Source: an uncultured archaeon (GTDB lineage Archaea > Aenigmatarchaeota > Aenigmatarchaeia > CG10238-14 > SCSR01). Taken from it: a DNA stretch of 64,000 bases. Location: the NCBI GenBank assembly GCA_964373665.1, contig CAYJVM010000001.1, positions 9,546 to 73,545 of the forward strand, written 5' to 3'. Made by a program: the position numbers and the translations under genes. The notes under the pieces are model-generated. The model did no database searches, was not told the origin of the DNA, and worked only from the letters and a program-made list of their open reading frames with translations. Below, piece by piece: positions 8,425 to 55,749 of the stretch (within the stretch, counting starts at the first letter, position 1; each line of letters begins with the position of its first letter).

Positions 8425-9492
8425 TTAAGCGTTAAAATCGATTCCGTCGATTGAAACCAAATTGTTTTTTAAATCAACATCGAACTTGACTCCCAGAAGA
8501 TGCTCCACCACCGAAATGTTTGTCCTACAATGTTCTGTCATCTCCTCTATCTTTATTGTCGACTTGCCGCTGGCCAGTGCCAGGAAAGGCATTATCTGGT
8601 CTGACATGTGCTTGTCCAAGGGGAAGTTTAATGATCTGACAAGTTCATGCGAGGCTTCCTCTCCCACTTTCTCAGCGGGCTTGCCTATGGCTCCTATCCT
8701 GTCGGCACCGATCACGGTATTTTCACAATCTGCCCATAATGTTATTGATGTTCCGGGGGAAGCCGTGTCCGCGAGTTTCTTCTCAATTTGAGCGTTTGAA
8801 TATCCTGCATCAACCAAGACTTTATTTGCGCTGTTTGCCTGTCTTTTTGCTATATCCTCCGGCAGTGAGCCTGAAATAGAAATACCTCTTATACTTTCTA
8901 TCCCTCCCCTCTCAGTGAGCTCTATAGGATCCAATTTTTTAACTGGCTTGAAGACGACTTTCACTTCTCCCTGGCCTTTAGGATAAAACCCTTCCCTCAC
9001 AATGTCGACTTTTGGAAGCGGCATGCCTAGCCTGTTCAAAACAGGGAATGTAACATTCTGAACGTACTGGATCGTCGGGGCCCCCAGGCCAGCAGTGCCG
9101 CCTTTGATATCGAGAGTTATTTCACTGTCGGCGAAAACCATTAATGGAGTTAGTGTCTGCAGCAGAAGGCCTATGGAACCTGCAGTGCCGATGTCTATTT
9201 TCCTGCTCCTAACTTCACGCGACTTGGGGACGAACTCTATTTCCGTGGAATGCAATTCAAGTCCTTTAATTTGTGCATTTGCAAACTCTCCAGCAATTTT
9301 AACTCCTGTCAAATGTTGCATTTGCAGCCCGGGCTTGGGCCTATTCTTCCTAATGTTCGTAATTTTTACAGGCTCTAAGGTAAGCGCAGACAGCGCTATG
9401 CAAGTCCTTAGCACCTGGCCATAACCTAATGAGCCATCTATTGTTATCATAGATCTTGTTTGTTTTACAAGATAGAAAAGATTACTCATCAA
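8425..9492 (-). CDS. rtcA: RNA 3'-terminal phosphate cyclase
   Basis: N-terminus ITIDGSLGYGQVLRTCIALSALT...IRKNRPKPGLQMQHL matches the RtcA signature. Size is 355 aa. Confidence 0.8.
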   Translation of the reverse strand: MMSNLFYLVKQTRSMITIDGSLGYGQVLRTCIALSALTLEPVKITNIRKNRPKPGLQMQHLTGVKIAGEFANAQIKGLELHSTEIEFVPKSREVRSRKIDIGTAGSIGLLLQTLTPLMVFADSEITLDIKGGTAGLGAPTIQYVQNVTFPVLNRLGMPLPKVDIVREGFYPKGQGEVKVVFKPVKKLDPIELTERGGIESIRGISISGSLPEDIAKRQANSANKVLVDAGYSNAQIEKKLADTASPGTSITLWADCENTVIGADRIGAIGKPAEKVGEEASHELVRSLNFPLDKHMSDQIMPFLALASGKSTIKIEEMTEHCRTNISVVEHLLGVKFDVDLKNNLVSIDGIDFNA

Positions 9493-9548
9493 GAAATCTG
9501 GCGGCAGTGGAACAATTTTGGAAGAAAAACTAACCTGAGATTGGCAAG

Positions 9549-10190
9549 TTAGCCTAGGATATGCGACAATATTGCTATGTTGAATATTCCAAGGAAGCTG
9601 AATACGAAAGAGTAGAACAAAACCTTCCTGGTGTCAAACCTGGCTACAGCCCACATCGCCGACACCAAGAATTCAGTGGGCAAAGGCAACGATACTAGTA
9701 TGCCCGAGAGCGCTGGTATGGACGACTTGAGAATCTTGGAGTTCTGTATCTTCCTGTTGATCTTGTGCTCCAAGACAGTCCCATCCACCCCAAAGTCCTG
9801 CGCCAGGACATTTTTCACTTCCTCCAAAAGCCCGTGCTTCACAAACTTGTAAACCATGAAATTGCTAGCTGTAGCCGCAATCGCTCCAATTATTGCCACA
9901 GAAAACGGGTTCATGCTCTTAGACATGATGAAGAGAGCCGTCGCTGCAGGTATGGTGAAGCTCCCGAACGAGAACAGAAAACCGAGCGCAACCACGCTTA
10001 GGTATCCAAAGTTCGCCAGGGCCAGCGCAAGCTGGGACGATACCTGTGTCTTCAAAAGAAGGTAGGAGAAAACTATGCCCAATATAAAGAGGAACACATT
10101 CTGATGAGTCAGCTGGAACCTGGCGACAGCCCTGACAACCTTGCCAACCTTTTTCTTTTTCTCACTTTCCTCGTACGAATAGCGATTCAT
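9549..10190 (-). CDS. Integral membrane protein of unknown function
   Basis: 213 aa, about 5 hydrophobic helices, Lys-rich N-terminus. Confidence 0.4.
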   Translation of the reverse strand: MNRYSYEESEKKKKVGKVVRAVARFQLTHQNVFLFILGIVFSYLLLKTQVSSQLALALANFGYLSVVALGFLFSFGSFTIPAATALFIMSKSMNPFSVAIIGAIAATASNFMVYKFVKHGLLEEVKNVLAQDFGVDGTVLEHKINRKIQNSKILKSSIPALSGILVSLPLPTEFLVSAMWAVARFDTRKVLFYSFVFSFLGIFNIAILSHILG

Positions 10191-11369: not shown

Positions 11370-11981
11370 ATGGAAGTACAACATGAAAGAAAGGAGCCTT
11401 GGATATTAAGAACACTCCGTATTTTTCCTTCTGTTGACAATTACCTGGACAATCTGAAATATATTGATGAGTTGACTGGACTTTATCGGCAGAGATATTT
11501 CAATGATATTCTTCGAACCCAGTATGCTCAGACAGCCTCGTACAGAGAAGACAACCATAGGAGGCATAGGATAATTGTTCCAGACCTGTCTTTATTGTTC
11601 GGCGATTTGGATAACTTTCACCTCTTTAACAGGATGTATGGGCAATTGAGAGGAAATGAAGCGCTGCACAATGTCGGCGACACTATAAGACGCAACAAAC
11701 GTCCAGGCGACATTGCAGGAAGATTGGGTGGCGAGGAAATGGGTATTTTGCTGCCTAATACAGAACATCAAGAAGCACTTGTGGCCGCAGAAAAGTTTAG
11801 GCATCTAGTGGAGGCAGAATCAGAAGGTCTTGTAACAATGAGTTTCGGCGCAGCAACATTCACTCCAAGAAATCCTAATATGGCATCCTCCTTAGAACTT
11901 CACAACACTGCTGAGAATGCAATGAAATTAGCCAAAGTAACTGGTGGAAATAGGGTATGCGGAATGTACGAATTACTCTAA
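11370..11981 (+). CDS. Stand-alone GGDEF-domain protein (diguanylate-cyclase-like; GGEEM variant with RxxD I-site)
   Basis: DELTGLYRQRYF (D.LTGL.NRR.F); LLFGDLDNFHLFNRMYGQLRGNEAL (DiDhFK.iND.yGH.GD); RPGDIAGRLGGEEMGILLP (RxxD + GG[DE]EF); VTMSFGAA; AENAMKLAKVTGGNRV (AD.ALY.AK..GRNRV). Confidence 0.7.
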   Translation: MEVQHERKEPWILRTLRIFPSVDNYLDNLKYIDELTGLYRQRYFNDILRTQYAQTASYREDNHRRHRIIVPDLSLLFGDLDNFHLFNRMYGQLRGNEALHNVGDTIRRNKRPGDIAGRLGGEEMGILLPNTEHQEALVAAEKFRHLVEAESEGLVTMSFGAATFTPRNPNMASSLELHNTAENAMKLAKVTGGNRVCGMYELL

Positions 11982-12259: not shown

Positions 12260-12323
12260 ATCACTTAATAACTATGTTATGTTTATATATTTTCGAACCG
12301 GTTCTAGCATAAGAGAAATTACC

Positions 12324-12599
12324 ATGTCTAGGGAATTCACAGTAGTAATAGAGCAAGGGGAAGATGGCTATTTTGTTTCAGAAGTAGTTGAACTGCCCGG
12401 ATGCCATACACAAGGCAAAACTATAGATGAGCTACTGGAAAGAACTAGAGAGGCCATTTCACTATACCTTGTGGTCGAGAAGGACATTGAACCTCAAACA
12501 TTCAATCATCCTGATGAAAAAATCGACAGAGGACTTTTGAATAAAATAATCAAGCATGATTTGGGGATGAGAAGAGAAGAATTTATGAGGTATTTGTAG
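12324..12599 (+). CDS. HicB-like antitoxin (UPF0150 / RNase-H-fold antitoxin family)
   Basis: Start moved to ATG 12324 because the track ORF start overlaps the ferredoxin gene. FTVVIEQGEDGYFVSEVVELPGCHTQGKTIDELLERTREAISLYL matches the HicB N-domain pattern. Confidence 0.55.
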   Translation: MSREFTVVIEQGEDGYFVSEVVELPGCHTQGKTIDELLERTREAISLYLVVEKDIEPQTFNHPDEKIDRGLLNKIIKHDLGMRREEFMRYL

Positions 12600-12778
12600 A
12601 ATGCCGGAAAAGTTTGTTGTATGCAGAGTGAACGAGAATTATCTGAAGAATGTCAAGAAGCAGATGAAAGAGCAGAAAATGCCTTTGCCGAAAGACGATG
12701 GAAACATAACGATAGCTCACAATCCAGTCGCAACTTTCTCGAGCGAGGATTTGTGCGACTGCAATGTTTGCAAAAAGA

Positions 12779-13096
12779 TCAGCGCGACGCTGTTATAGCT
12801 TCTTTATTGTATTTGGCATGCTTAATTCCGTCAACGTCATACAAGCCAAATATTAGCCAACTTAACGGATTCGAACAGCCCATTGCAAAGCCGATGTAAA
12901 ACAATGGTCCTCTTCCGTACCCCAACTCATTGGAGTAGCTTTTATATGCACATTCATTACCAAAGGTATATGGCCTTTCACGTGTTGCGTTGCCCCTTAC
13001 ACGCCTCTCTATTAAAGCGGCTGGAAGGTCAAGCCCAAATCCAAACCCGCTAGCAAAGTCAGAAGCAAGTATCTTAATCCTATAGTCTCCATTCAT
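12779..13096 (-). CDS. Hypothetical protein
   Basis: 105-aa ORF, 17-nt overlap with upstream ORF 13080..13352 (same strand, likely co-translated). Confidence 0.3.
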   Translation of the reverse strand: MNGDYRIKILASDFASGFGFGLDLPAALIERRVRGNATRERPYTFGNECAYKSYSNELGYGRGPLFYIGFAMGCSNPLSWLIFGLYDVDGIKHAKYNKEAITASR

Positions 13097-13352
13097 CCAA
13101 AATCTCTCTAAGCTGGTCAGTCAGCTTTCTAGACAAATTGATTTTGGCCTTTAAAAGTTTTTGTCTAGTTTCAGTGTCATTGCTAGTTCTTTCTACAGTG
13201 TTCAAAAACATCAATGCAGACCTCAGTTCAAGCCAGAAGAAAGCCCTTTCAGTAGCCTTTTTCACATTCTGTAAGTCATTCTCAGCGAGAGCCTTCTCCC
13301 TCCACATCTGGTAATTCTCATTGCATGTGGCTATCTGGGTCTCAGTTGACAT
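13080..13352 (-). CDS. Hypothetical helical protein
   Basis: 90-aa ORF, predicted helical, first gene of a 2-gene unit. Confidence 0.3.
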   Translation of the reverse strand: MSTETQIATCNENYQMWREKALAENDLQNVKKATERAFFWLELRSALMFLNTVERTSNDTETRQKLLKAKINLSRKLTDQLREILDEWRL

Positions 13353-13886: not shown

Positions 13887-15149
13887 TTAGAGCGTGAAAA
13901 TTCTGTCGTTCGCCACAGGCGCTATAGCATCATAGCCCTTCTCCTTTAATTCCAGAGCGAATTCCTCAGTGCTGTCTCCGTGGACACAGAATACCTTTTC
14001 AGGATTTAGCTTGCTGATGAATCCAAGCAGATCCTTCCTTCCTAAATGGCTGGAAAAGTCCAGCCTCCTAATATTCATCTTGACCTCTACGTCAATCTCA
14101 TCATGCACAAACCTTCCGGTCTCTAGAAGGAGCTTTCCCGAAGTTCCTTCCACCTGAAAGCCGCTGAGAACAAGGCTGCTATTCCGCCTGTCGAAAAGCT
14201 TGCTTATGTACCAGACTATGGGCCCGCCCGTCAGCATGCCGCTTGTGGAAAGGATTACCCCCGGCTTTTTTATCGCATTCTTCCTCATCCTGTGGTCGTT
14301 CACGTACTCAACCTTCTCCAAAGCCTTGTCCAGACTCTTCGGATCCTTTAGCAGCTTTTTCTGCTCGTTTATAATCGTTATAGCTTTCCTTGCCATACCG
14401 TCCACGTATACGGGATAATCAATCCCATAACTGTCCAGCACAAGCAACAGTTCGTCTATGCGTCCGACGGCGAATCCGGATAGCAATGCCATGCCGTCAT
14501 TGCTCAGAGTGTCCCTCACTATCCTGACAAGCTCCTTCTCCTGCGACGCCCTGTCGGGATGCTCCCTGTTGCAGTATGTGGTTTCTGTTATCAACGTGTC
14601 CACTCTCGGCAGGTCTGTGTCGGCGCCTTTCAGGAGCCTTGTGTCGTCCAGCTTGTAATCGCCAGTGTAAAGAATAGTCTTGCTTCCGGTGTCGATAAAT
14701 GGCATGCTGGAGCCGGGGATGTGTCCGGCGTCGAACAGTATGATTTTGCTCTTGTGCAGCTTTGCAGGCACGCGGAACTTGGTCGGCACGAAATTGGCCA
14801 GAGTCTTTTCCACGTTCTTCTTTGTGAACGGCAGATCATAGCCCTCCTCCTTGCTTATCTTTATCGAGTCCATCCACAGCAATCTGCACAGTTCCCTTGT
14901 AGCGTATCCTGCATACGTCGGGACGCTGTTGCCCTTGGCGGAAAATATGGATGCTCCGCCGCTGTGGTCAAGGTGGGCATGCGACAGCAGTAAAGCGTCT
15001 ATCTTGCCCTCAACAGGTATGGGAAACTTGGGAGGCATGTCCTGTATTTTCGTGCCATAGTCAAGAAGTATCTTTTCTATTCCAGTATCTACCAACGCGC
15101 CGCTCGAGCCCACAGAGCTCATGGCGCCTAGGAAGCTGAGCTGAACCAT
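13887..15149 (-). CDS. Metallo-beta-lactamase/beta-CASP family ribonuclease (aCPSF2 / RNase J-like)
   Basis: HAHLDHSG zinc-binding motif, DAGHIPGS, and C-terminal HGD/H motifs of the beta-CASP family (FCVHGDS). Size is 420 aa. Confidence 0.75.
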   Translation of the reverse strand: MVQLSFLGAMSSVGSSGALVDTGIEKILLDYGTKIQDMPPKFPIPVEGKIDALLLSHAHLDHSGGASIFSAKGNSVPTYAGYATRELCRLLWMDSIKISKEEGYDLPFTKKNVEKTLANFVPTKFRVPAKLHKSKIILFDAGHIPGSSMPFIDTGSKTILYTGDYKLDDTRLLKGADTDLPRVDTLITETTYCNREHPDRASQEKELVRIVRDTLSNDGMALLSGFAVGRIDELLLVLDSYGIDYPVYVDGMARKAITIINEQKKLLKDPKSLDKALEKVEYVNDHRMRKNAIKKPGVILSTSGMLTGGPIVWYISKLFDRRNSSLVLSGFQVEGTSGKLLLETGRFVHDEIDVEVKMNIRRLDFSSHLGRKDLLGFISKLNPEKVFCVHGDSTEEFALELKEKGYDAIAPVANDRIFTL

Positions 15150-15261
15150 TATGTTAATTTAATCGACAACACTATTATAATTAAGTTATGTTTAACAAAA
15201 ACTCATACTAAAATGACTGGTGAATATGGCCAAATACTGAGTCTCAACTAAGATCGGAGTA

Positions 15262-15345
15262 CGTTAAGAAGTTAAGGAAAATCGAAGAAGAGGGCACTTT
15301 CTGAAGAAGAGTTTGAAAGAAAGCTTAAAGTGAAAATAAGATAGA
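15262..15345 (+). pseudogene. Remnant of a relB-like antitoxin gene (3' ~80 bp, frameshifted), followed by the cassette-end motif
   Basis: gttaagaagttaaggaaaatcgaagaagagggcac-tttctgaagaagagtttgaaagaaagcttaaagtgaaa is ~85% identical to 16389-16466 of the intact relB gene, with a 2-nt indel. Confidence 0.6.
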
Positions 15346-15467
15346 CAGCTTTTCCCGTCCCACTATTTTATTAATCAATTGTACACAGTATTACACATCT
15401 TTATTGGAATTATATATTCCCAAAATCTTTATATATCTACCAAATTCATATAATTTTTGGTGATAGT

Positions 15468-15725
15468 ATGAAATATGGTGTTGTAGAAAGAGAGATAGAT
15501 CCTCAAGGTAGAGTTTTGCTGCCTAAGGGGTGGAGAGCTGAAATAAAAACTAAAAAAGTCATTTTGCTGCAGACGCCTGAGTATGTTAAAATTTTACCGA
15601 AGAAAAAAGTAGATCTAACCAAATATTCCAATTCGATAAAAGTTGATTTGAAAGCGCCTCTTACTGATTGGCATGCAGTTAAGGCAGAACTTCTAGCAAA
15701 AGCATACCTTCGTGATAAGAAATGA
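15468..15725 (+). CDS. vapB: VapB-type antitoxin (AbrB/SpoVT swapped-hairpin domain)
   Basis: EREIDPQGRVLLPKGWR motif. 4-nt ATGA overlap with the PIN gene. Confidence 0.7.
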   Translation: MKYGVVEREIDPQGRVLLPKGWRAEIKTKKVILLQTPEYVKILPKKKVDLTKYSNSIKVDLKAPLTDWHAVKAELLAKAYLRDKK

Positions 15726-16141
15726 TATTCTTAGATTCGAATGTTATAATTTACGACCAAATAAAAACAGAAAGAAAGTTAGACGAAAAGACACAGGAAA
15801 TTAAGAAAGCATCGCATCAAATTATGGAACGTATATCTAAGGGAGAAAAAGTAGTAACTACAGTTGTTCATATTTCAGAAACTGCAAATATCTTGGAAGA
15901 AATTGTTGGTATAGAAAACTCTTATAATTCCGTAGTAGATTTATTAAAATCTGAAAATATCCGTGTAGAGAATGTTGAAAAAAGTCTGTATACAGCTAGC
16001 CTAGATGAAGCTAAAGAATTTAAGATCGGTGTTAATGACGGGTTAGCTGTAGTCGTTATGAAAAATTCAGGAATCAATGAAATTTATAGCTTTGATGAGC
16101 ATTTTGACAGAATTGAGGGAATAAAAAGAATAACCAAGTGA
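15722..16141 (+). CDS. vapC: VapC PIN-domain toxin
   Basis: MIFLDSNVIIY...SFDEHFDRI (PIN acidic residues D5, E, D), 139 aa. Confidence 0.75.
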   Translation: MIFLDSNVIIYDQIKTERKLDEKTQEIKKASHQIMERISKGEKVVTTVVHISETANILEEIVGIENSYNSVVDLLKSENIRVENVEKSLYTASLDEAKEFKIGVNDGLAVVVMKNSGINEIYSFDEHFDRIEGIKRITK

Positions 16142-16234
16142 ATGGACAGCTTTTCCTATCCCCTATATTTGTAGGGATGCATACAGCAGAAACGTTTATA
16201 TACGAGATATATATTAAGTATATTAGGTGTATAT

Positions 16235-16471
16235 ATGCCAAAAGCCATGATACAAATATCAGATAAAGCTAACAGAGTGCTGAATATTTTGAAGGCAAAA
16301 TATGGTTTGAAGGATAAATCCCATGCTATCAATAAAATGGCTGAGGAATACAGTCAAACACTGCTAGAGCCTCAATTAAGGCCAGACTATATTAAAAAGT
16401 TAAGAAAAATCGAAGAAGAGGGCACGATTTCTGAAGAAGACTTTGAAAGAAGGCTCAAAGTGAAAGTATAA
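16235..16471 (+). CDS. relB: RelB/ParD-like antitoxin
   Basis: 78-aa ORF directly upstream of the RelE-like gene with a 1-nt (TAATG) overlap. Confidence 0.6.
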   Translation: MPKAMIQISDKANRVLNILKAKYGLKDKSHAINKMAEEYSQTLLEPQLRPDYIKKLRKIEEEGTISEEDFERRLKVKV

Positions 16472-16737
16472 TGTTCTCCGCGGAATTTTCCAAGGAACTT
16501 ACCAGAAAATTGGAGAAATCGCAGGCGAGGAACAAAGTTATGTTTGACGCCATCATCAACAAGATTAGGGAAATTAAGGAGAACCCCGAACATTACAAAC
16601 CACTAAGATATGACATGAAAGGCTTTAGAAGAGCGCACATCATGAAATCATTCGTTCTTATTTTCAGAATTGATTACGCGAATAGTAAAATAATCTTTGA
16701 AGACTTTGGGCATCATGACGACATTTACCAGCGTTAA
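16471..16737 (+). CDS. relE: RelE/ParE-family toxin
   Basis: KIREIKENPEHYKPLRYDMKGFRRAHIMKSFVLIFRIDYANSKIIFEDFGHHDDIY matches the RelE pattern (..G.rR.R.G.YRiiY.id.....i..igHR...Y). Confidence 0.7.
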   Translation: MFSAEFSKELTRKLEKSQARNKVMFDAIINKIREIKENPEHYKPLRYDMKGFRRAHIMKSFVLIFRIDYANSKIIFEDFGHHDDIYQR

Positions 16738-16835
16738 TAGACAGCTTTTCCTATCTGCCTGATTTATTAACATATCATTTCATACTAAAGTGAAGTGAGT
16801 GTGATGAACAACCAATTCAAGGTGAACAGTGGCCA

Positions 16836-17123
16836 ATGGGTGATGGATCGCCAATATCTAGCGATCTTTCCAGTCTAAAGAAAATCATACTCAAAGCGCT
16901 TAATCAAAACCAGATACTGCTTTTGAACGAGATTGAAAAGAATCCTTCTAAAACTATAACATCGATAATAAACAAAACTTCTAAAACATCAAAAGTACCT
17001 CTCTCTACGCTAAAGCTAAATGCACGTCTATTGAAAGAGTTGGAGCTGATAAAGTACTCTGTTTCTAAACCGGTTGAGTTAAGCAAGTCCGGCATGCTTG
17101 TAATGAATTTGGTCAGGCGATGA
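16836..17123 (+). CDS. Winged-helix transcriptional regulator
   Basis: ILKALNQNQILLLNEIEK...LSTLKLNARLLKELELIKY wHTH pattern. Stop overlaps the start of the racemase gene. Confidence 0.5.
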   Translation: MGDGSPISSDLSSLKKIILKALNQNQILLLNEIEKNPSKTITSIINKTSKTSKVPLSTLKLNARLLKELELIKYSVSKPVELSKSGMLVMNLVRR

Positions 17124-17124
17124 C

Positions 17125-17814
17125 ATGAAAGCTGTTGGAATTATAGGCGGTTTGGGGCCTGAAACAACTTCAGAGTTCTACATGAGCATAATAAAAAGGA
17201 ATTCTGAAAGAAGCAATAGCCATCCAAGGATTCTGGTACACAATGTACCAATGCCGTTCTCTTTAGAGGAAGATATAGTAAAGAATTCTAGAAATGAACA
17301 CAAATTGTTACCTCTACTGCTTGAAGGTTTGAACATACTGCAAGACAAAGTAGACTTTATCGTCATTCCATGCAATACAGCCCACATATTCATCGATGAC
17401 GTGAGAGTGCAATCGAAAATTCCAGTCCTGAGTATAATAGAAGAAGTTGTCGACAGAATTAAAAGTAAAAAAATAGGTCGTGTGGGGATATTGGCGACTT
17501 CAAAGACTATTGAAAGTAAATTATTCGACTCCAAATTGGTCTCAAATAACATCGGTTGCATTACACCAGATGCGAATGATCAAAGAAGGGTATCTGAAAT
17601 AATACATTTACTTCTCAAGGGAGTCAAGTCCAAGGAATTGAAGTCCGGACTAATGGGAATTGTAGACAAACTCAAAGATGACGGTGCAGAAGCAATAATT
17701 CTTGGATGCACAGATCTGCAACTTTTGCTGAAGCAGGAGGAATCTCCGATAGAGTTGATCGACACATTGGACGTGCTAGCCGATTCCGTTGTGAAAGGAA
17801 TTAATCCAGAGTGA
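17125..17814 (+). CDS. Aspartate/glutamate racemase family protein (aspartate racemase-like)
   Basis: GIIGGLGPETT, catalytic Cys motifs VIPCNTAH and ILGCTDL. Confidence 0.7.
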   Translation: MKAVGIIGGLGPETTSEFYMSIIKRNSERSNSHPRILVHNVPMPFSLEEDIVKNSRNEHKLLPLLLEGLNILQDKVDFIVIPCNTAHIFIDDVRVQSKIPVLSIIEEVVDRIKSKKIGRVGILATSKTIESKLFDSKLVSNNIGCITPDANDQRRVSEIIHLLLKGVKSKELKSGLMGIVDKLKDDGAEAIILGCTDLQLLLKQEESPIELIDTLDVLADSVVKGINPE

Positions 17815-17820
17815 TTCTAA

Positions 17821-18663
17821 ATGACTCGAGAAACACTTTTAGAATCCCTTCAGAGCGAACCACTTTTAACAGGCTTGACTGTAGGAAGCGATTTGAATGG
17901 CTCAACTGGTAATTATTTTGGAATAGGAATAGGAAATCGGCATGGTTTAACAGAGGATTTGCCTTTTGATGCTTTAGGTATGGTGTTAATTTCAGAATTG
18001 GTAAAAAGAGAGCTTGGATTAAATACCACTAAAGTTATAGTGGCTGATGAACACGCAAAATCGAATGGCTTCAATGAAGCAGATATTGATAGAATAGCCA
18101 AATCGCGCAGAGATTTTCTTGTAAATACATCAGACAGGCTTGGATTTGCTGGATGGAGAGTCGTCTTAGGTTCTGAGACAGCGAAAGACCCTCAATATTT
18201 AGAAGTTGTAGCTGGAATAAAAAAAGGAAACTACTACGAAAGAGCTCAATTAGCAGATATGGAACTTTGCAGAAAATTAGGAAATGGAATAAAAATAGGA
18301 TGGAAACATGGATACATGGAATTTGATGAGAGGCATTTCGATAGTCTTTACAATTCGATTTTTGGAGATGGGACGACTTTCGTTTACATGGAAGCAGGTA
18401 AAGCACTAGACGGGACGCCCCAAGCGCCGTACTTGGTCAATTCAGACAGATCAAGATTATTTCTAAGACAAGATGAGGATTTAGAGCGGATGGTTAGCCA
18501 GATGTCGAGAAGAGTTAGAGCCCATTTCAATAATATAGTCGATTTATACGAGAGAATATTATACGGCGCGATAAAAACAAACGATAGTCAGAATACACCG
18601 GAAAATCTTAGAATGCGATTAAGGGAGACATATGGTGTTATATTTGGGAGTAGATATATCTAA
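17821..18663 (+). CDS. Hypothetical protein (280 aa) between the racemase and tyrS
   Basis: Long ORF with tight spacing (6 nt after the racemase, 25 nt before tyrS); no motif recognised. Confidence 0.5.
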   Translation: MTRETLLESLQSEPLLTGLTVGSDLNGSTGNYFGIGIGNRHGLTEDLPFDALGMVLISELVKRELGLNTTKVIVADEHAKSNGFNEADIDRIAKSRRDFLVNTSDRLGFAGWRVVLGSETAKDPQYLEVVAGIKKGNYYERAQLADMELCRKLGNGIKIGWKHGYMEFDERHFDSLYNSIFGDGTTFVYMEAGKALDGTPQAPYLVNSDRSRLFLRQDEDLERMVSQMSRRVRAHFNNIVDLYERILYGAIKTNDSQNTPENLRMRLRETYGVIFGSRYI

Positions 18664-18688
18664 AAACTTTGAAATAGAATAGGATATT

Positions 18689-19777
18689 ATGGACTTGGAA
18701 TCGCGACTAGAGTTAGTCAAAGGGGTCGGTGAAGAAATAATAACCGAAAATGAACTTAGAGAACTCCTGGCTACTAAATTGCATCCGGTAGCTTACGATG
18801 GGTTTGAGCCTTCGGGTCTGGCACACCTTCCATTCGGAATTTACAGACCACTGCTGTTAAGAGATCTTACCAAGGCTGGGGTGCATTTCAAATTATACGT
18901 CGCCGACTGGTATGGTTGGTTGAACAACAAGATGGGCGGCGACCTGCAAAAAATAAGGAAAGTTGGCGAGTATTTTGTCGAGGTGTGGAAGGCTGGCGGT
19001 GTCGACACAAAAAAAGTCGAGTTTATATGGGCATCAGACGTGATGGCTGACAGAGAATACTGGAAAACGGTAATACACATAGCAAAGAATACAACTCTCA
19101 ACAGGGCGACGAGGATGCTTACTATAATGGGTCGAAAGGAAGGAGAACTGCAGGAAGTGGCACAGTATTTCTATCCTATGATGCAAACCGCGGATATTTT
19201 TGCCCTGAAAGCGGATATATGCCAGCTTGGTTTAGACCAAAAGAGAGCGAATATTTTGGCGAGAGAGGTTGGTCCTAAAATCGGTTTCTGGAAGCCTGTC
19301 GTAGTTTCGCACCACATGCTCATGGGCCTGGAAGGAATTAAGAAACCTGAAGGATTCGAAGAAAACAAAGAACTCGACGTAGAGATTTCATCGAAAATGA
19401 GCAAGTCCAAGCCGCAGACATCGATATTCGTCCACGATTCAATGGAAGAGATAAAAAAGAAAATAAATTCCGCATTTTGCCCGGCTAAAGTCATTGAAGG
19501 CAATCCCGTTCTTGAATATTCAAAGCATCTTGTGTTCAGAAAGTTCAAGTCCATGAAAATAGAGCGGGACAAAAAGTTCGGCGGCGATATAGAATTTGAC
19601 AACTATAATGAATTGGAAAGCATGTTCAGGGAAGGCAAGCTGCATCCGGCTGACTTGAAGAACACAGTTTCAGAGTATCTTGACGACATGATAGAGCCAA
19701 TCAGGACGCATTTCGAGAAGGACAGGAAGGCAAAGAAACTGTACGAGTTCGTGAAGAAGCAGCAGGTCACCAGATAA
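18689..19777 (+). CDS. tyrS: Tyrosyl-tRNA synthetase (archaeal type)
   Basis: AYDGFEPSGLAHL (HIGH region), YPMMQTADIFAL..GLDQKRANILAREV, KMSKSKP (KMSKS). Confidence 0.8.
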   Translation: MDLESRLELVKGVGEEIITENELRELLATKLHPVAYDGFEPSGLAHLPFGIYRPLLLRDLTKAGVHFKLYVADWYGWLNNKMGGDLQKIRKVGEYFVEVWKAGGVDTKKVEFIWASDVMADREYWKTVIHIAKNTTLNRATRMLTIMGRKEGELQEVAQYFYPMMQTADIFALKADICQLGLDQKRANILAREVGPKIGFWKPVVVSHHMLMGLEGIKKPEGFEENKELDVEISSKMSKSKPQTSIFVHDSMEEIKKKINSAFCPAKVIEGNPVLEYSKHLVFRKFKSMKIERDKKFGGDIEFDNYNELESMFREGKLHPADLKNTVSEYLDDMIEPIRTHFEKDRKAKKLYEFVKKQQVTR

Positions 19778-35277: not shown

Positions 35278-35679
35278 TTACAATAACCTTAATCCATCGA
35301 TTTTCTCAAAGTCTTTTTTATTGTTGGTGAAAAGCTTGAATGAGTTGGTCAGGCATATAGATCCGATAAACAAGTCCCTCAAAGCAATCATTTTGCTTTT
35401 CTTCTCCAAATCTGCAATAATTTTTGCGGCCATTTCCATCGAGTCTTCACTTGTGCTGACGAGAAAAACCGTGTTCAGCAACCCCTTTACAGCAGCCAGT
35501 TCTTTTTCTTGGTGTCGACTTTTGTACACACCTAAATAAAGCTCAAATGCATTTATGTCAGTTGTTCCTAGCTCATTTTCTTCTTTGAGCTCTCTTATTT
35601 TTTCCACAACTTTTGGATCATTCTTCAAAAAGTCTATCATCACATCCGAGTCTAAGATTATCTTTTCCATGATTTCCAC
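35278..35679 (-). CDS. vapC: VapC PIN-domain toxin
   Basis: ILDSDVMIDFL...TNNKKDFEKI PIN acidic residues; 133 aa. Confidence 0.65.
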   Translation of the reverse strand: MEIMEKIILDSDVMIDFLKNDPKVVEKIRELKEENELGTTDINAFELYLGVYKSRHQEKELAAVKGLLNTVFLVSTSEDSMEMAAKIIADLEKKSKMIALRDLFIGSICLTNSFKLFTNNKKDFEKIDGLRLL

Positions 35680-35951
35680 AAGTCCGAAATTCCCTTTTTC
35701 ATTTTTTCAGCTTCTTTATCGGTCATAGTCCATGTGCCAGCAAAAGACATGATATCCCCTCTTTTCTCAGTTTTCAAAAGTTCAGAAATGGCATCGTTCA
35801 TTGAAACAGGCCTCCTTTCTTTAACCCTGAGCATGCCCACGTACCTATTCAATCTGTTGTACAGTTCTTCCTTGACTTTAATTGATTTTTCCACTTTTTC
35901 CACCAAGTAGTATTGGTATACTTGATATTTATACTTTACCACACTAATCAT
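35658..35951 (-). CDS. vapB: Cognate antitoxin (RHH-like N-terminus, C-terminal toxin-binding tail)
   Basis: SIKVKEELYNRLNRYVG strand-helix; C-terminal MSFAGTWTMTDKEAEKM; 22-nt overlap with the PIN gene. Start codon uncertain. Confidence 0.5.
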   Translation of the reverse strand: MISVVKYKYQVYQYYLVEKVEKSIKVKEELYNRLNRYVGMLRVKERRPVSMNDAISELLKTEKRGDIMSFAGTWTMTDKEAEKMKKGISDLWKSWKR

Positions 35952-47579: not shown

Positions 47580-47747
47580 ATGTTACAAGATCGCCCTTTA
47601 ACATGTGATAAATGTGGTCAATCAAGCAATTATCCCAAAAATGAAGCATATAAAGACGGTGTGACATGCAAAAATTGCAATAAGGAGATAGATACGACTA
47701 AACTAAAAGTTCTCGACGTGGTAAAAGCATTTAGAGAAGAAGACTAG
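47580..47747 (+). CDS. Small Zn-ribbon protein (55 aa)
   Basis: MLQDRPLTCDKCGQ...VTCKNCNKEI; below the track threshold; abuts the transposase gene. Confidence 0.3.
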   Translation: MLQDRPLTCDKCGQSSNYPKNEAYKDGVTCKNCNKEIDTTKLKVLDVVKAFREED

Positions 47748-49315
47748 GTATGAACAATCTCATAAAGAGATTTCAAGAATAGCTTAAAGGTAACTACCCT
47801 TTTTGCAGCGTCCTTTATTCCAAGTTCTAACATTACAAGTAGGTTGATTAATGTCCATAAATTGTATAGTGCAACCGAAAACAGAAAATAGAATAATCTT
47901 ATTGAATAATTGTTAGATGTTGTCTTAACTAAACCTTCTCTTTTCTTAACACGGTATCCAGTTTCTATTCCCCATCTCTTACCATACATTCTAGGCAGGT
48001 TTTCAATCAAATCCACATCGTGACTGTTAATTGGAATGTTGGTTGCTATCTTCATCAGACCTTTAGTTCCTTCAACCAGAACAAGGTTCTTTATGATAGC
48101 GTTGCCTCTCTTATAGTTATGAATAACAAATGGTGGTGATACAGTTTCTATAACTTTCTTAACGCCTCTGTCATCAGGCAGTGGTACCACATAATTCAAT
48201 TTCATTGACTGCAACAGGTTGAATATTTTCTCGTTAGCGAATCCTCTATCCATGTAAATCTTGTTGATCTTGATTTTCTTCTGAGTATATTCTAACAACT
48301 CTTTAACTAAATCAGCTTCTCTATCGAAGATGAAAACAGGGAAAGCACATAACGTAAACCTAGTACCGTTTTCTACAATATCAAGAGTAATGTACTTGAA
48401 GTATCTGATAGTACCGTGATCATATTTGCTGTTGACGATGTTGGGATGGTTAGGATCTCCATAATAATGTTGGAAAGTATAGTCAACTGCAACATCAAAC
48501 TTTCTCTTATTAAATTTTCCAGACCTTTTAGCTATCCTAAACAACTCATCCGAAACTTTGGTAAATATGGCCTTGGTAGATTTAGGGTCGTGCTTCTTCA
48601 GATGATAAAGAATTGTGTTGGAAGCTGGTGAAATGGAGCCATTCTTCTTGTAGGACAATGCTCCACCATTCGTGAAACTACCTTCCAATGCCGAATGTAC
48701 TAGAACATCTAATATAGTGTTTTTAGTGTATTTTGCGTTATGCTTTATGTCAAGTTTTATCTTAGGATATATTATCTGTCTTAATCTTTTGGAGAGTTCG
48801 CTTAATTTCTGCTCCTTTTGATATTGTACATTGGTTTCTTTAACTGGCTCTATTTTTTCTTCTATTTTCGGAATTTCTGTGTCGAAACTCAGATCGAATT
48901 TCTCGGATATTTCCCTAATTTTTTTGACTATCAGTTCTATAATTTCCTTTTCTTCCTGAATGAGCTTGTGAACAAGAAAATAGGAAAAGCTCCTTTGGTC
49001 AGGTACCATTAATGTGTTGGTTTCGTCTTTGTCAAAACCTAGATTAAGTGCGTCGTTTTCGTTTGACTTTAGATAATCCGATAGATTTTTGGAGGATTTA
49101 ATTCCTTTCAATTGTTTGTAAATCAAGGCTCTTATCAACGATAATTTGGAGAATCTTATCATTTCTTCATCTGGTATTATGTGACCTATCTCCAGTTTAG
49201 ATAGAAATTCAGATAACTTGATAGAGCTAACATTCTTTAAACTAACAAAATTCTTATATACAGTCTTTTCAATTTTACTAATGGGGATTGTTGCTGTCAT
49301 AGGTAACATCTCCAC
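47744..49315 (-). CDS. DDE transposase, IS4-superfamily (IS1634/ISH3-like size)
   Basis: 523 aa; C-terminal KRWGIETGYRVKKRE (Y..RW.IE....K signature of IS4-type DDE transposases). Confidence 0.7.
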   Translation of the reverse strand: MEMLPMTATIPISKIEKTVYKNFVSLKNVSSIKLSEFLSKLEIGHIIPDEEMIRFSKLSLIRALIYKQLKGIKSSKNLSDYLKSNENDALNLGFDKDETNTLMVPDQRSFSYFLVHKLIQEEKEIIELIVKKIREISEKFDLSFDTEIPKIEEKIEPVKETNVQYQKEQKLSELSKRLRQIIYPKIKLDIKHNAKYTKNTILDVLVHSALEGSFTNGGALSYKKNGSISPASNTILYHLKKHDPKSTKAIFTKVSDELFRIAKRSGKFNKRKFDVAVDYTFQHYYGDPNHPNIVNSKYDHGTIRYFKYITLDIVENGTRFTLCAFPVFIFDREADLVKELLEYTQKKIKINKIYMDRGFANEKIFNLLQSMKLNYVVPLPDDRGVKKVIETVSPPFVIHNYKRGNAIIKNLVLVEGTKGLMKIATNIPINSHDVDLIENLPRMYGKRWGIETGYRVKKREGLVKTTSNNYSIRLFYFLFSVALYNLWTLINLLVMLELGIKDAAKRVVTFKLFLKSLYEIVHT

Positions 49316-49496
49316 CAGAGGAGTCAGTTCACAAGGCTAGCTCCTCTGGCTTACTTATCCAATGGGATAAGATTATTAGTCCTTATCCATAGTCTTATCC
49401 ATAGGTATAATATATATGTACTAGTATTTAAGCTTATCGGTATGGCTATCGGTAGAAAGTATTTAAATATAATAAACGAATTACTTTTAGATTAAT

Positions 49497-49700
49497 ATGG
49501 AAGACGAAATATCCAAGAAAATTGTCAGTACCATTAAATCTTCAGACGAACCAATCGAAACAAAAGAGATAGAACAAAAAATCAAAGGTGTGTCTAGAGA
49601 TAAGATATTGTACAGATTGTTTAATTTGAGAGGTGAAGGAGTAATTAAAGGAAAACAAGTAGGCTCAGGTAAAGGTACTTGGATATGGTGGAAAAAGTAA
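49497..49700 (+). CDS. Small winged-helix protein upstream of the R-M gene (candidate controller/regulator)
   Basis: IETKEIEQKIKGVSRDKILYRLFNLRGEGVIKGKQ. Confidence 0.45.
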   Translation: MEDEISKKIVSTIKSSDEPIETKEIEQKIKGVSRDKILYRLFNLRGEGVIKGKQVGSGKGTWIWWKK

Positions 49701-49718
49701 ACTGCATCAGGAGATAAT

Positions 49719-52700
49719 ATGGTAGAAAAACCAGACTTTGTAGATTCCGTCTTGAACTCTTTTAAGAATATATTAGGAGAGGTAGAGAAAGGCTCATCTG
49801 AACACGATATCAGATACAAGTTTGTCAAGTATTTTCTCGAGGATGTACTAGGTTACGAACCAAGACTGATCAAATGGGAAAAGAAGAGAGCTGACTTGAC
49901 CATCATAGACGATAACAATTTTTCTGTAATAATGATAGAAACGAAAAGACCCCAAGAGGACATAGAGAAAGCATCGATAGAAGAACAGGCTTTCAAGTAT
50001 GAGGAGGGAACTACAAAATACATAGGACTGACTAATTTTTCTCGGTTCAAATTATGGGAAACTAAGGATTCTAAAAGAGAACTGAAGGCGGACATAGACT
50101 TTTCGAGACTAATAGAAAGAAAAAGTGAACTATCGACTGAGGATAAAGGTAATATACTATTTCTGAATAATCTCACCAAAGATCAAATTTTTGATGCAAG
50201 AAAATACGAGAAATTCGACGAAACATATGCTAAAATCGATATAACGAAAGACGTTGGATTTAGAAAATTGTTGGAGAAGCTTAATTTCATTGCCAATAAT
50301 CTTTTGCTGGGATATACGCTGAAAGCATTTGGAGAATACAAAGAAGGTTATGGTAGATACCTGGAAGAATTGAAGCAAGTCGAGAAAGTGTCTAATAATT
50401 CGCATAAAGAAATTAATCATGGTGTGGCCAAGTTCAAGCAAAAGCTAGAGGAAAAATATGAAAAATACAGGACATTTTCTGGCTATTATTTATGGAAGGA
50501 GTATTCGGGAAAAGAGAACATTACAGATGATGAGATAAAGGAAGTTTTCTGCAAAGAAACAATTTACGTATTCCTTAACAAGTTGCTCTTCCTAAGAATA
50601 TGCGAAGATAAGGGATTGCTTGAGAAGAATATTTCAAACGGTGGAATCGAAGAGTTAAGAGCTGTCCTCAAAAAGAGATTTGAAAAAGATATCTTAAACA
50701 AAGAAATACTAAAGCTGGCTTTTGAGAGTGCGAAAGGTCTGTACTCCCATTTTTACGAGACGGGTATCTTGGATTGGTTTAGAACTGGAGATGGTGAACT
50801 AAACGAGTTGTTGAACAGAGTGCTGTGGATAATGAATTCGTTCAACTTTAGACATGTTGACAGGGATATACTAGGCAACCTTTATGAAAAATACCTTCCC
50901 AGTAACGAAAGAAAAAGATTGGGGGAATTTTACACACCAGTTGAGGTTATAGACTACATTTTAACGTCTGTTGGATATACTTACAGCTATGATATTGAAA
51001 CTAAAGATTTGTTAGATCCAGCGTGTGGTTCAGGCGGTTTCTTAGTTAGAGGTACAAGAAGATTAATTAGCAGGTATTTGATGAAATTTGGTAAATCTGA
51101 CAAGAAAGAATTGAGAGATCCTAAAAATTGGAAGGAGATTGTTAGTAGATTGTCACCTGACGAAGCAAAAATAATTCTTGAATCTATTAAAGAACATATT
51201 TATGGTCTTGATGTCAATCCTTTTGCCTGCCACATTGCTGAGATGAACCTTCTTTTTCAAGTAGTAGATTTGTATCAGAAAGCTAGAGAAAAATATAGAG
51301 ATTACAAGTTAGGAAGATTCAAAATATATAGAACAGATTCTTTGGAAAAACCTAGTCAAAAACAGATTTTTGATTACACCCATTCGACATTCTTGGAAGA
51401 GCAGGAAGAGATCGATAAGATTAAGAGCAAGAAGTTTGATTTTGTTACGGGTAACCCACCATATATCCGCGTACAAATGTTGGATGAGAGAGTGAAGAAG
51501 TATATTACCGAGAATTACAAAACGGCTTATAGCAACTTTGATTTATATGTTATTTTTATTGAGCGTGGTCTGAATTGGCTTAAGGATAATGGGAATTTTG
51601 GATACATTACGTCCAATCAATTCATAAATAGAGAATATGGTAAAAAATTAAGAAAATATATTTTGGAAAATTCCAAAATCATAAGCATAATAGATTTCGG
51701 TGATTCTGGAGTATTCAAGGATGCTACAAATTATCCAATGATACTGATTTTTAAAAGGGGCACACAAAAATCTAATAGGTTCAAATTTATAAAAGTAAAG
51801 CAATCGAAAGATAATTTAATTGGAGATATTTTTTCCAAGTTTAAGGAAAAAGAATATAATGGTCCTTATTTTGATATTTTTGAAATTGAACAGAATAAAC
51901 TTTCCGAAGAAACATGGCAACTATTTTCAGGTACAATAATTAAAATTCTAGAAAAGCTAGAAAAGAATATTAAACTGAAGGATCTGTGTAGAGAAAATGG
52001 TGTAGTAGTTGGTGTACAAACAGGATTAAATGATGTTTATGTTGTAAATAAAGACACTATTAACAAATACAAATTAGAAAGCAGTTTAATCAAAAAGTTG
52101 TTAGACAGTAGAGATGTAAGACGATGGAAAATAAATCATAGTGGACTGTATTTAATATACCCTTATTACGAAAGGGGTGGAAAAACAATCTTGATTGATG
52201 AAAAGACATTGAAGTCTGATTTTTCGAACGTTTATTCATATTTACTTGAAAATAAAAATAAACTTATAAAACGATGGGGTGTGAAAAACTGTTGGTATGA
52301 ATTGCCAACCGCAAGAACTCTAAATTTCTTTGAACAGAAAAAAATTTTAACTCCGACCATAAGTAATTTTAACAACTTTGCCTTAGATACAAATGGACTT
52401 TTCTTTGCGAAAGGAGCAGGAGGAAGCTATGGAATTATATTAAAAAATGATAGCAAAGATAACTATCTTTACATTTTGGGTCTGATAAATTCCAGATTGT
52501 TAGAATTCTACTTAAAGCAATTTCTTCCTGTAAAAGCCGGTGGATGGTATGAATATATAGCAGCATATCTGGAAAAACTCCCTATCAAACTTCCAGAAAC
52601 TGCAGAGGAAAAGAAAATTACCAATCAGATAATCAAGAAAGTAGACGAAATTTTAGAATTGCATAAATCTGGAATTGTGGATATAGACACTGCACTTGAA

Positions 52701-53096: not shown

Positions 53097-53102
53097 TATA
53101 AC

Positions 53103-54600: not shown

Positions 54601-54723
54601 TTTCTTTCAATATTAATTATAAGCTAACACTTAAATACTTTGTTTTTGCATGTAGTTTGCGTATACTAGGTATAATATGGGGAAAGAACATACTGATATA
54701 AGGCTATAAAAGAAAATAATAAT

Positions 54724-55552: not shown

Positions 55553-55586
55553 ACAGTTGACTTTTACTAAAACATACCATTTTAAT

Positions 55587-55718: not shown

Positions 55719-55749
55719 ATATTTATTTGGATTTAATCAACTTCTATAA

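Follow-up and report, generated by a model that had tools for sequence, protein, structure and literature searches.

Tandem accretion through unequal or short-homology recombination is known at genomic hot spots, where TA-rich variable islets lie between conserved core genes and Campbell-type insertions give repeated att-like flanks. Acinetobacter plasmids have pdif modules, small units with TA or other content that lie between short repeated sites and are shuffled between replicons; the repeats, called pdif, are XerC/XerD sites of 28 bp whose orientation alternates. Integron cassette arrays and CALINs, including those of archaeal integrons (Ghaly et al. 2022, PMC9668308), consist of tandem co-oriented short operons with a repeated site after each; chromosomal integrons often carry TA modules, and their content varies between relatives at one chromosomal place, as it does at the locus described below. 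MarR-family (winged-helix) regulators bind pseudo-palindromic operators in their own or divergent promoters. The archaeal regulators TrmBL1/Tgr, Ptr2 and TFB-RF1 bind upstream of the BRE/TATA (PMC4158304), and palindromic sites in this position are typical binding sites for archaeal regulators of the winged-helix kind (PMC4158304).

The window analysed here is a 64-kb stretch of DNA with archaeal gene content (GINS, L44e, S27e, S4e, primase and eRF1). A first-pass annotation had reported an ~18-bp motif after a relB remnant, vapC and relE, and the motif was located there as three direct copies of ATRGACAGCTTTTCCYRTC, starting at positions 15341, 16142 and 16737, all on the + strand and following the relB pseudogene, vapC and relE, respectively. 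The 19-mers of copy 1 (15341-15359, ATAGACAGCTTTTCCCGTC), copy 2 (16142-16160, ATGGACAGCTTTTCCTATC) and copy 3 (16737-16755, ATAGACAGCTTTTCCTATC) share an exact 12-nt core, GACAGCTTTTCC, at 15344-15355, 16145-16156 and 16740-16751. Similarity runs for about 34 nt and amounts to 79% between copies 1 and 3 and to 65% between copies 1 and 2. In its full extent copy 1 (15341-15374, +) retains a TATA-like part after the core (TTTTATTAA), copy 2 (16142-16165, +) has lost the TATA part, and copy 3 (16737-16771, +), the native copy, is orthologous at fixed spacing to sequences of the related loci L072, L082, L081b, L085, L086 and L087. Every copy starts at, or at most 1 nt from, a stop codon: TAG lies inside copy 1, vapC ends at copy 2 as TGA|ATGG, and TAA overlaps copy 3. 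The copies are spaced by 801 and 595 nt, with co-oriented genes between them, all on the + strand. No further copies were found in the 64 kb, even when 1 mismatch was allowed in the 12-mer or 3 mismatches in the 19-mer. The window sequence is 100% identical over 20 kb in two independent public assemblies, indicating that the array is not an assembly artefact.

The array is flanked on the left by a gene for a 420-aa beta-CASP/metallo-beta-lactamase RNase (13887-15149, - strand; Pfam Beta-Casp, RMMBL and Lactamase_B_6), which constitutes the conserved left flank of a variable site and has orthologues in L072, L081 and L083-L087; by blastn, window positions 13887-15166 align to L072 4417-5698. 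In the beta-CASP-proximal intergenic sequence (15150-15208) the first ~17 nt are orthologous to those of the relatives, and the remainder is junction. It is followed by a relB (DUF2683) pseudogene (15209-15340, +), a frameshifted 3' fragment with no relE behind it. This fragment is 80-85% identical to 16333-16471, with frameshifting deletions of 4 nt and 2 nt, and 80% identical to the relB of L072; as to which of the window relB copies is the orthologue of the L072 gene, the pairwise identities are 85%, 80% and 75%. The vapBC unit has a promoter and leader at 15417-15467 (+), conserved in L081, L083 and L084; a TATA-like TCTTTATATAT lies around 15426-15436, and GGTGAT precedes the ATG. It encodes an 85-aa AbrB/MraZ-like VapB antitoxin (15468-15725, +; Pfam MraZ, E 2e-4, below the gathering cutoff), whose orthologues adjoin PIN genes in L081-L084, and a 139-aa PIN-domain VapC toxin (15722-16141, +; Pfam PIN, E 4e-11), homologues of which, with 60-74% identity, occupy the same locus in relatives. 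The PIN toxin gene thus lies behind a small antitoxin gene that overlaps it by 4 nt, as in VapBC modules. The relBE unit has its promoter and leader at 16190-16234 (+), with the TATA-like GTTTATATA, where a 75.5% alignment to L072 5718-6670 begins. Here a RelE/ParE-fold toxin gene lies behind a small overlapping antitoxin gene, as in RelBE/ParDE modules: a 78-aa RelB-type antitoxin (16235-16471, +; Pfam DUF2683, E 5e-7) is followed by an 88-aa RelE/ParE/YafQ-type toxin (16471-16737, +; Pfam ParE_toxin, E 8e-8; YafQ_toxin, E 3e-7), the two genes overlapping by 1 nt. One hundred homologues of this toxin were found, and its pairing with the DUF2683 antitoxin is conserved in L072, L076, L079 and L080.

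On the right of the array lies the gene of a 95-aa protein (16836-17123, +) with a small MarR-like winged-helix fold in an AlphaFold model of pLDDT 84. Nearly all of the top Foldseek matches in the PDB were MarR-family proteins (probability 1.0, TM 0.6-0.68, E about 3e-3), so that a winged helix-turn-helix is recognised at fold level only, the sequence identity to these matches being 10-24%. In contrast to typical MarR proteins of about 140 aa, this protein is short and has no Pfam match; its family is narrow and comprises 17 sequences. We take it to be a regulator with the motif in its promoter. Further to the right (17125-19777, +) are genes for an Asp/Glu racemase, a 280-aa protein of no assigned function and a class-I (Trp/Tyr-type) tRNA synthetase, in the same order as in L085.

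Comparison with relatives, covering nine locus architectures, established the orthology of the motif to the promoter region of the regulator gene. The motif forms a pseudo-palindrome of 16 bp, GAYAG-N6-CTRTC, directly 5' of a BRE/TATA-like box (CCGCCTGATTTATWAAC) and about 95 nt before the start codon. In copy 3 the pseudo-palindrome reads GACAG-CTTTTC-CTATC (16740-16755) and is separated by TGCCTGA from the TATA-like TTTATTAA (16763-16770); the copy leads into the conserved 5' leader of the regulator gene (16772-16835, +), which in the alignment of orthologous loci has AAGGTGAA before the ATG. All seven orthologous loci keep a fixed spacing from the motif to the TATA-like box TTTATWAA and on to the conserved leader of the 95-aa gene, in which GGTGA precedes the ATG, and they can be aligned in an ungapped register, G..AG-.TTTT.-CT.TC-cGcc..ATTTAT.Aac. 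An inverted-repeat site is conserved in the regulator's own predicted promoter in 7/7 loci; a relaxed form of the pattern reads AGCTTTTYCTRTCC, or GNYAG-N6-CTRTC followed by TTTATWAA. GAYAG is present in 14 of 20 half-sites, and G at position 1 together with AG at positions 4-5 in 18 of 20; the half-site centres are 11 bp apart. The pseudo-palindrome looks like an operator. Position and conservation suggest that the regulator gene is transcribed from the TATA-like box and that the regulator itself binds the palindrome, probably in autoregulation. In this respect the locus resembles those of the MarR and archaeal regulators, with a small winged-helix protein and a predicted 16-bp inverted-repeat site, half-sites one helical turn apart, immediately 5' of its own BRE/TATA and within the divergent intergenic region. 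Two other assignments were tried and rejected: a duplicate of the beta-CASP 5' coding end showed no convincing similarity to the motif, and an antisense small ORF through it (D[RG]KSC) has an in-frame stop in copy 1 and no start codon.

The relatives differ in what occupies the site, which holds no TA module, vapBC only, relBE only or, as in this window, both. In L085, L086 and L087, which have no TA module, the beta-CASP gene adjoins the regulator gene and the bare stretch between these divergent genes already contains the motif (GGTAGCTTTTTCTATCCGCCGAATTTATTAAC, GCTAACTTTTTCTGTCCGCCGAATTTATTAAC and GCTAGATTTTCCTGTCCGCCTGATTTATAAGC). The motif tracks the regulator gene, being found in each of the seven loci that have it, and is absent from L083 and L084, where vapBC is present and the regulator gene is not. 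It is likewise absent after the non-syntenic relBE homologues of L076, L079 and L080 (76-80% RelE identity) and, within the window, at a second vapBC (35278-35951) and at a HicB-like module. These absences indicate that the cassettes do not bring the motif with them. In loci with a single cassette (L072, L082) the motif occurs once, not twice. L081 is further rearranged: two non-identical motif copies bracket a 3.2-kb segment, and one of them, L081a, has an intact palindrome with no regulator gene next to it. Compared with L072, the beta-CASP/relB intergenic region of the window is interrupted by an insertion of 1023 bp (15167-16189). In every lineage the toxin genes, which are of two unrelated kinds, end 0-9 nt from the motif. 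We explain this by selection that keeps both divergent promoters intact, but site-directed insertion would also yield such an arrangement; with TA uptake confined to the few nt between two divergent promoters, any module at the site ends right at the motif. The first-pass annotation had proposed that the modules share a 3' boundary, and to this extent it holds, since modules end at the motif and TA modules were taken up as discrete units; the meanings it offered for the motif are not supported.

The motif is thus probably the upstream promoter part of the winged-helix regulator gene, duplicated with each TA module added. Ancestrally, the beta-CASP RNase gene and the regulator gene would have been separated by a short divergent spacer with the motif in it, and the few nt between the divergent promoters would have become a site of repeated type II TA module uptake in this archaeal group. 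Three versions of the locus, with a decayed relB(E), vapBC and relBE, would then have been joined head to tail, each unit starting with beta-CASP-proximal sequence, continuing with a promoter and genes of its own and closing with a motif copy, so that the joining of three versions, each ending in its own copy, accounts for the three direct copies. The boundaries of the units are visible in the sequence. After copy 1, TAATCAATTGTA (15372-15383, +), the left end of the vapBC unit, is an exact 12-mer match to the L083 sequence by the beta-CASP start, 3-6 nt from the start codon in L083/L084; 6 of 2000 shuffles did as well. After copy 2, ATATTTGTA (16165-16173, +), the left end of the relBE unit, is an exact 9-mer match, also aligned by MAFFT, to the equivalent in L072/L085, about 6 nt from the beta-CASP start codon; 7-8 of 2000 shuffles were as good. 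The array has the appearance of alleles of the whole locus strung together head to tail, and AT-rich microhomology most likely served to join them: at the joints, the AT-rich TATA region behind the motif (GATTTATWAACAT) is similar to the sequence by the beta-CASP start codon (CATTTATNAATAT). From this similarity we infer that alleles probably recombined unequally or through short homologies, or that a circularised allele was inserted in the Campbell manner; a dedicated site-specific recombinase would not take part in either process. Beyond the motif, promoter homology extends to about +24 nt in copy 2, +31 in L081a and +34 in copy 1, and since the retained homology stops at different points in each copy there was no single crossover point. 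The microhomology at the joints is short and AT-rich, which counts against the model.

An array of this kind invites a recombination reading, and the first-pass annotation had indeed suggested an integron-like cassette organisation. The motif would then be a dedicated recombination site (integron attC/attI-like or att/dif-like) and the TA cassettes would be moved by a recombinase encoded elsewhere. Direct repeats bracket each window unit and the 3.2-kb segment of L081, alternative cassettes occupy the same site in different relatives, the toxin genes have their stop codons right at the motif, all three copies share an identical 12-nt core, and an attI-like site would likewise pre-exist in empty loci; moreover, at least two sites lie less than 4 kb apart between co-oriented short ORFs, a feature that alone is not specific to integrons/CALINs. 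However, there is no IntI, which integrons have next to the array and CALINs may lack, and no tyrosine or serine recombinase domain was detected among the window ORFs covered, namely those of the Pfam list for 5722-26141 and another 30 with 138 aa or more; the only mobile-element genes, for a DDE transposase (47744-49315) and an HTH_7 protein (56598-57242), are both more than 30 kb away. The repeat, of 19-34 nt, has neither the R''-L''/L'-R' structure (no R''(RYYYAAC)/R'(GTTRRRY) pair in the three spacers, on either strand) nor a single-strand fold, its single-strand DNA folding no better than shuffles (z -1.4 to +0.35). Unlike in integrons/CALINs, the repeat is orthologous to a promoter element of empty loci and is missing from the same cassettes at other loci, and the junctions after the motif lie at three different positions. 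Single-cassette loci show one copy rather than two, many differences separate the two L081 copies, which did not arise in one exchange, and the half-sites lack the 11-6-11 architecture of dif-like sites; together with the direct orientation, this also separates the motif from pdif sites. Nothing was found at the motif in Rfam at gathering thresholds in the window and seven loci. Scans with 19/20-mers gave 42 matches in 185,579 species genomes and 27 in JGI metagenomes, about the number expected by chance and none in TA context, with patterns that required GACAG and would miss the GATAG/GGTAG variants of relatives; viral contigs gave 0 matches. The sole enrichment in the scans came from bacterial MAGs, where an unrelated element, multi-copy and longer than 120 nt, happens to contain the 19-mer. 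A dedicated recombination site is thus quite unlikely, and the integron-like organisation is not supported. In a further reading, which we hold to be very unlikely, the palindrome would be more than part of a promoter and would form, with the winged-helix protein, a docking site for TA capture and exchange between archaeal lineages, through a recombinase acting in trans or protein binding that makes the site recombinogenic, and the extra copies would wire the modules into regulator control; if true, this would be an integrase-less, operator-centred cassette platform in archaea.

Other readings concern the function of the copies in place. Copies 1 and 2 may be functional, as extra operators and, in the case of copy 1, a full extra promoter, with the regulator controlling vapBC/relBE and the repeat kept by selection. 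The identity of the 12-nt core, in spite of flanks and relB copies that differ by 15-20%, the correct spacing of the TATA-like part in copy 1 and the intact palindrome of L081a all point this way, but in relatives without an upstream motif (L083, L072) conserved TATA-like promoters belong to vapBC and relBE themselves, the TATA part is lost in copy 2, and the copy number is too low for a statistical test of constraint; we hold this reading to be unlikely. The core identity exceeds that predicted from the ~15-20% divergence of the neighbouring relB copies; copies 1 and 2 could be functional or homogenised, and a simple view of them as passive duplicates does not explain it. The common terminator also put forward in the first-pass annotation, by which the TA operons would share a terminator of transcription or a 3'-end element, is highly improbable. 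The motif does directly follow three stop codons and contains a T-run with a weak imperfect inverted repeat, GACAG/CYRTC, around it, and one terminator-like match was obtained, on the opposite strand and in copy 1 only (the sigma-70/terminator scan uses bacterial models and is not informative for an archaeon). Nevertheless, in the TA-less loci the sole upstream gene is divergent, the spacing to the downstream TATA-like box and gene is fixed, and the motif follows no other gene in 64 kb. The T-run of the window copies is only 4 nt, short of a run of at least 5 nt, and a hairpin with a T-run is not formed, as the putative RNA stem GACAG-N6-CYRTC has a central mismatch in every window copy and its half-site changes across loci are not compensatory. 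Chance similarity of the three copies, for which the short length of the core and nothing else speaks, has a negligible probability: three matches were reached in 0 of 100 shuffles, the expected counts in 64 kb are 0.03 for the 19-mer with 3 mismatches and 0.40 for the 12-mer with 1 mismatch, and orthologous copies exist in six other loci.

The reading as a duplicated promoter element of the regulator gene places the locus closest to hot-spot accretion, with which it shares conserved flanks, alternative occupants and direct flank repeats bracketing each added unit, as well as an older unit in decay, in which the toxin was lost first and the antitoxin was then truncated. It differs from such accretion in two points: what is repeated looks like a functional promoter element, and each unit is a complete allele of one small intergenic site. 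The finding is an ordinary one, cleanly resolved down to the nucleotide, which removes the tempting but wrong reading of an integron-like TA cassette array in an archaeon. A promoter/operator element of the flank can become a repeated 'cassette boundary' merely by head-to-tail joining of alleles, and this calls for caution in motif-based searches for new recombination systems. As a by-product, a narrow family of 95-aa MarR-like proteins (17 sequences) has been defined, together with a predicted operator and promoter. For the related archaea, the locus reveals a permissive gap of ~10 nt between divergent promoters as a recurrent landing place of type II TA modules, seen in the states empty, vapBC, relBE and stacked.

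A search of the whole window located the exact 12-mer GACAGCTTTTCC at three positions, starting at 15344, 16145 and 16740, and the 19-mer ATRGACAGCTTTTCCYRTC at 15341-15359, 16142-16160 and 16737-16755, all in direct orientation (copies 1, 2 and 3). No further copy was found in the 64 kb when one mismatch was allowed for the 12-mer or three for the 19-mer. Dinucleotide shuffles gave a chance expectation of 0.40 and 0.03 matches, respectively, and three copies were obtained in 0 of 100. Similarity between copies extends to ~34 nt, and each begins at a stop codon or at most one base from one, in agreement with the first-pass annotation, which had placed the repeat behind a relB remnant, vapC and relE. 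The gene identities proposed there also hold. The AbrB/MraZ-like antitoxin gene (vapB, 15468-15725) overlaps the PIN toxin gene (vapC, 15722-16141), and the DUF2683 antitoxin gene (relB, 16235-16471) overlaps the ParE/RelE/YafQ toxin gene (relE, 16471-16737). A second relB is present as a 3' fragment (~15209-15340) that shares 80-85% identity with the intact copy and carries 4-nt and 2-nt deletions. In this left-most unit, relE has been lost and only a truncated, frameshifted relB is left, which is the expected course of decay for a toxin-antitoxin (TA) locus. Since the window is 100% identical to two independent public assemblies over 20 kb, the array is not an assembly artefact. The G+C content of the interval between the beta-CASP RNase gene (13887-15149, -) and a gene for a predicted 95-aa winged-helix protein (16836-17123, +) is low (31-37%, versus a window mean of 41%).

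Exact-protein look-ups with RelE, VapC and the 95-aa protein retrieved eight other versions of this locus. In L085, L086 and L087 the beta-CASP gene (-) adjoins the 95-aa gene (+) and TA genes are absent; L072 has beta-CASP, relBE and the 95-aa gene; L082, whose contig begins inside vapB, has vapBC and the 95-aa gene; L083 and L084 have beta-CASP and vapBC, then a tRNA synthetase gene, and no 95-aa gene; L081 has beta-CASP, a deaminase gene, vapBC, an inverted 3.2-kb block and the 95-aa gene. Together with the window (beta-CASP, relB remnant, vapBC, relBE, 95-aa gene), these differing architectures indicate that the interval is a variable spot with conserved flanks, and the cassette-like modules with a shared 3' boundary initially proposed are borne out by the different occupants in the relatives. 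In L081 (6430-9720), the inverted block, which includes a racemase gene and a 288-aa gene, is flanked by two motif copies that differ in sequence but have the same orientation; downstream of the second copy, the 95-aa gene appears to have lost its start codon. The 931-aa beta-CASP orthologue of L086 (4017-6812) carries an intein containing a LAGLIDADG endonuclease domain.

The motif is already present in the 79-188-nt beta-CASP/95-aa intergenic region of the TA-less loci (GGTAGCTTTTTCTATCCGCCGAATTTATTAAC in L085, GCTAACTTTTTCTGTCCGCCGAATTTATTAAC in L086 and GCTAGATTTTCCTGTCCGCCTGATTTATAAGC in L087). Seven orthologous sequences, set in one ungapped register and also aligned with MAFFT, gave the consensus G..AG-.TTTT.-CT.TC-cGcc..ATTTAT.Aac, followed by a strongly conserved leader (tCATAaTAAa.TGAAGTGaG...) and by GGTGA before the ATG. 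Regardless of the upstream content, a TATA-like box (TTTATWAA; 16763-16770 in the window) and the 95-aa gene lie at a constant distance from the motif. The motif was found in 7/7 loci having this gene and was absent from L083 and L084, which have none; TA insertion has shifted it 0.6-1.6 kb from beta-CASP, never from the 95-aa gene. Judging by this fixed spacing and co-occurrence, the motif is part of the predicted promoter region of the 95-aa gene. The leader (window 16772-16880; L072, L082, L085, L086 and L081) is conserved to the degree seen in coding sequence and includes a 24-codon upstream ORF (ATG at 16805; MNNQFKVNSGQWVMDRQYLAIFPV, then a stop) overlapping the annotated start in another frame, whose peptide looks conserved in relatives, and a CTGA-N8-TGATGA sequence reminiscent of a C'/D' K-loop, CTGA being GTGA in three of seven loci. 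It is possibly a leader peptide or an RNA element.

Two pentamers of the motif form the pseudo-palindrome GAYAG-N6-CTRTC, with half-site centres 11 bp apart. Among the 20 half-sites of ten copies, 14 read GAYAG and 18 fit the pattern GNNAG. Half-site changes across loci are non-compensatory (GAC with CTA, GAT with CTG) and single-strand folding of the spacers was no better than that of shuffles (z -1.4 to +0.35); the symmetry is therefore more consistent with binding of a dimeric protein than with a hairpin. No Pfam match was found for the 95-aa protein. The AlphaFold model obtained from an alignment of its only 17 homologues was confident (pLDDT 84), and almost all of its best PDB matches were winged-helix regulators of the MarR family (Foldseek probability 1.0, TM 0.6-0.68, E ~3e-3). 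Regulators in archaea usually bind palindromic sites just upstream of BRE/TATA, often for activation (PMC4158304). From this precedent, the MarR-like fold and the position of the palindrome upstream of a TATA-like box, we infer that the motif is a putative operator of the 95-aa regulator, probably with a role in autoregulation.

Neither the second vapBC of the window (35278-35951, -; PIN, 133 aa, and VAPB_antitox, 97 aa) nor a HicB-like module (12279-12599) carries the motif. Within 12279-13352, a HicB-like antitoxin gene (106 aa) is followed by a 65-aa ORF, and two small ORFs without Pfam match (105 and 90 aa, -) overlap; both sets lie across the beta-CASP gene from the array and may represent additional TA-like pairs. 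Variable small genes are also found there in L072, L083 and L087, the last with HicA. Downstream of its tRNA synthetase gene, L087 has a lone DUF2683 (relB-type) gene (9460-9696, -) with no annotated toxin partner. The region 47744-57242 is likely a mobile or defence patch, with a DDE transposase (47744-49315, -), an 1125-aa Eco57I/MmeI-type restriction-methylase fusion (49719-53096), a winged-helix HTH_34 protein (54724-55101) and an HTH_7 resolvase-type HTH protein (56598-57242, -). A 203-aa GGDEF-domain protein (Pfam match) is encoded at 11370-11981 of this archaeal genome; GGDEF domains are uncommon in archaea.

Public scans with exact patterns, which are too strict for GATAG/GGTAG variants, gave 42 matches in one genome per prokaryotic species, 0 in viral contigs and 27 in JGI metagenomes, numbers close to the chance expectation; none of the matches in these three sets adjoined TA genes. 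Bacterial MAGs contain the 19-mer ATAGACAGCTTTTCCTGTC as well, as part of a conserved non-coding element present in multiple copies (>120 nt; ...CATGAGCGACTCGGATAACTGCTTATAGACAGCTTTTCCTGTCGTATAAAATTCCAGATGG...TTAATCCAATTTTAAGCATAAGATTGGAATAAG...), in which the palindrome GACAG-N6-CTGTC is perfect. This element, which has no Rfam match, occurs in Ca. Neomarinimicrobiota MAGs (L011, L018, L036 and L041, in the last ~50 nt upstream of a TPR-repeat gene), in three contigs of one 'uncultured bacterium' MAG (L003, L009 and L033) and in L006, L032, L056 and L063. A relationship to the archaeal motif is improbable.

An integron-like array, a common terminator and a shared recombination site had been suggested initially, and none of them is supported. 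No recombinase domain was found in the annotation of 5722-26141 or in 30 further window ORFs, and the spacers contain no R''/R' box pairs and no significant fold by shuffle comparison. Nor do the cassettes carry the site: the motif is absent from the same modules elsewhere, including behind relE homologues found at unrelated loci (L076, L079 and L080; RelE identity 76-80%), it is present in empty loci, and it stays with the 95-aa gene. The junctions also vary. The only integron feature, a trivial one, is that the repeats lie <4 kb apart between co-oriented ORFs, and the locus should not be classed as an integron or CALIN. A terminator is not supported because the empty loci have the motif without a co-directional gene upstream.

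Blastn aligned window 13887-15166 with L072 4417-5698 and window 16190-17128 with L072 5718-6670. Relative to L072, the window therefore contains a 1023-bp insertion (15167-16189) within the beta-CASP/relB intergenic region, consisting of the relB remnant, copy 1, the vapBC unit and copy 2. Directly after copy 1 lies TAATCAATTGTA (15372-15383), which in L083/L084 is 3-6 nt from the beta-CASP start codon (exact 12-mer, equalled by 6/2000 shuffles), and directly after copy 2 lies ATATTTGTA (16165-16173), ~6 nt from the beta-CASP start in L072 and L085 (exact 9-mer, equalled by 7-8/2000). The beta-CASP-proximal sequence after the extra copies indicates that each array unit is a complete 'allele' of the inter-promoter interval, which would start with that sequence, continue with the conserved promoter and the genes of the module itself, and end in a separate copy of the right-flank element. 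At the joints, the post-motif region GATTTATWAACAT resembles the beta-CASP-proximal sequence CATTTATNAATAT. The copies probably derive from unequal or short-homology recombination between alleles or, alternatively, from Campbell-type insertion of a circularised allele via the shared flank. A recombinase cutting at one fixed point does not fit the varying promoter homology kept after the motif (~24 nt in copy 2, 31 nt in L081a, one of the two L081 copies, and 34 nt in copy 1), the one motif copy, not two, of single-module loci, or the many differences between the two L081 copies. An operator-centred cassette docking site appears very improbable. The 12-nt core is identical in the three copies although the adjacent relB copies diverge by 15-20%, which would predict poorer conservation, and copy 1 retains the TATA-like part with correct spacing. 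The regulator might thus still be bound by the extra copies, which might even act as promoters for vapBC, a reading that we regard as unlikely.

The gap between the beta-CASP promoter region and the palindrome is just ~10-15 nt in L085, a locus devoid of TA genes, and unrelated modules have a common right-hand boundary within 0-9 nt of the motif. Insertion at any other position would disrupt one or the other of the predicted divergent promoters, so that selection by itself could explain this shared boundary; a targeted insertion mechanism would be expected to give the same picture. Overall, we consider the repeat likely to be an operator-like element in the promoter of the small MarR-like regulator gene. 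This element borders a site at which TA modules have landed repeatedly, and it would have been duplicated as alleles of the locus were joined head to tail.
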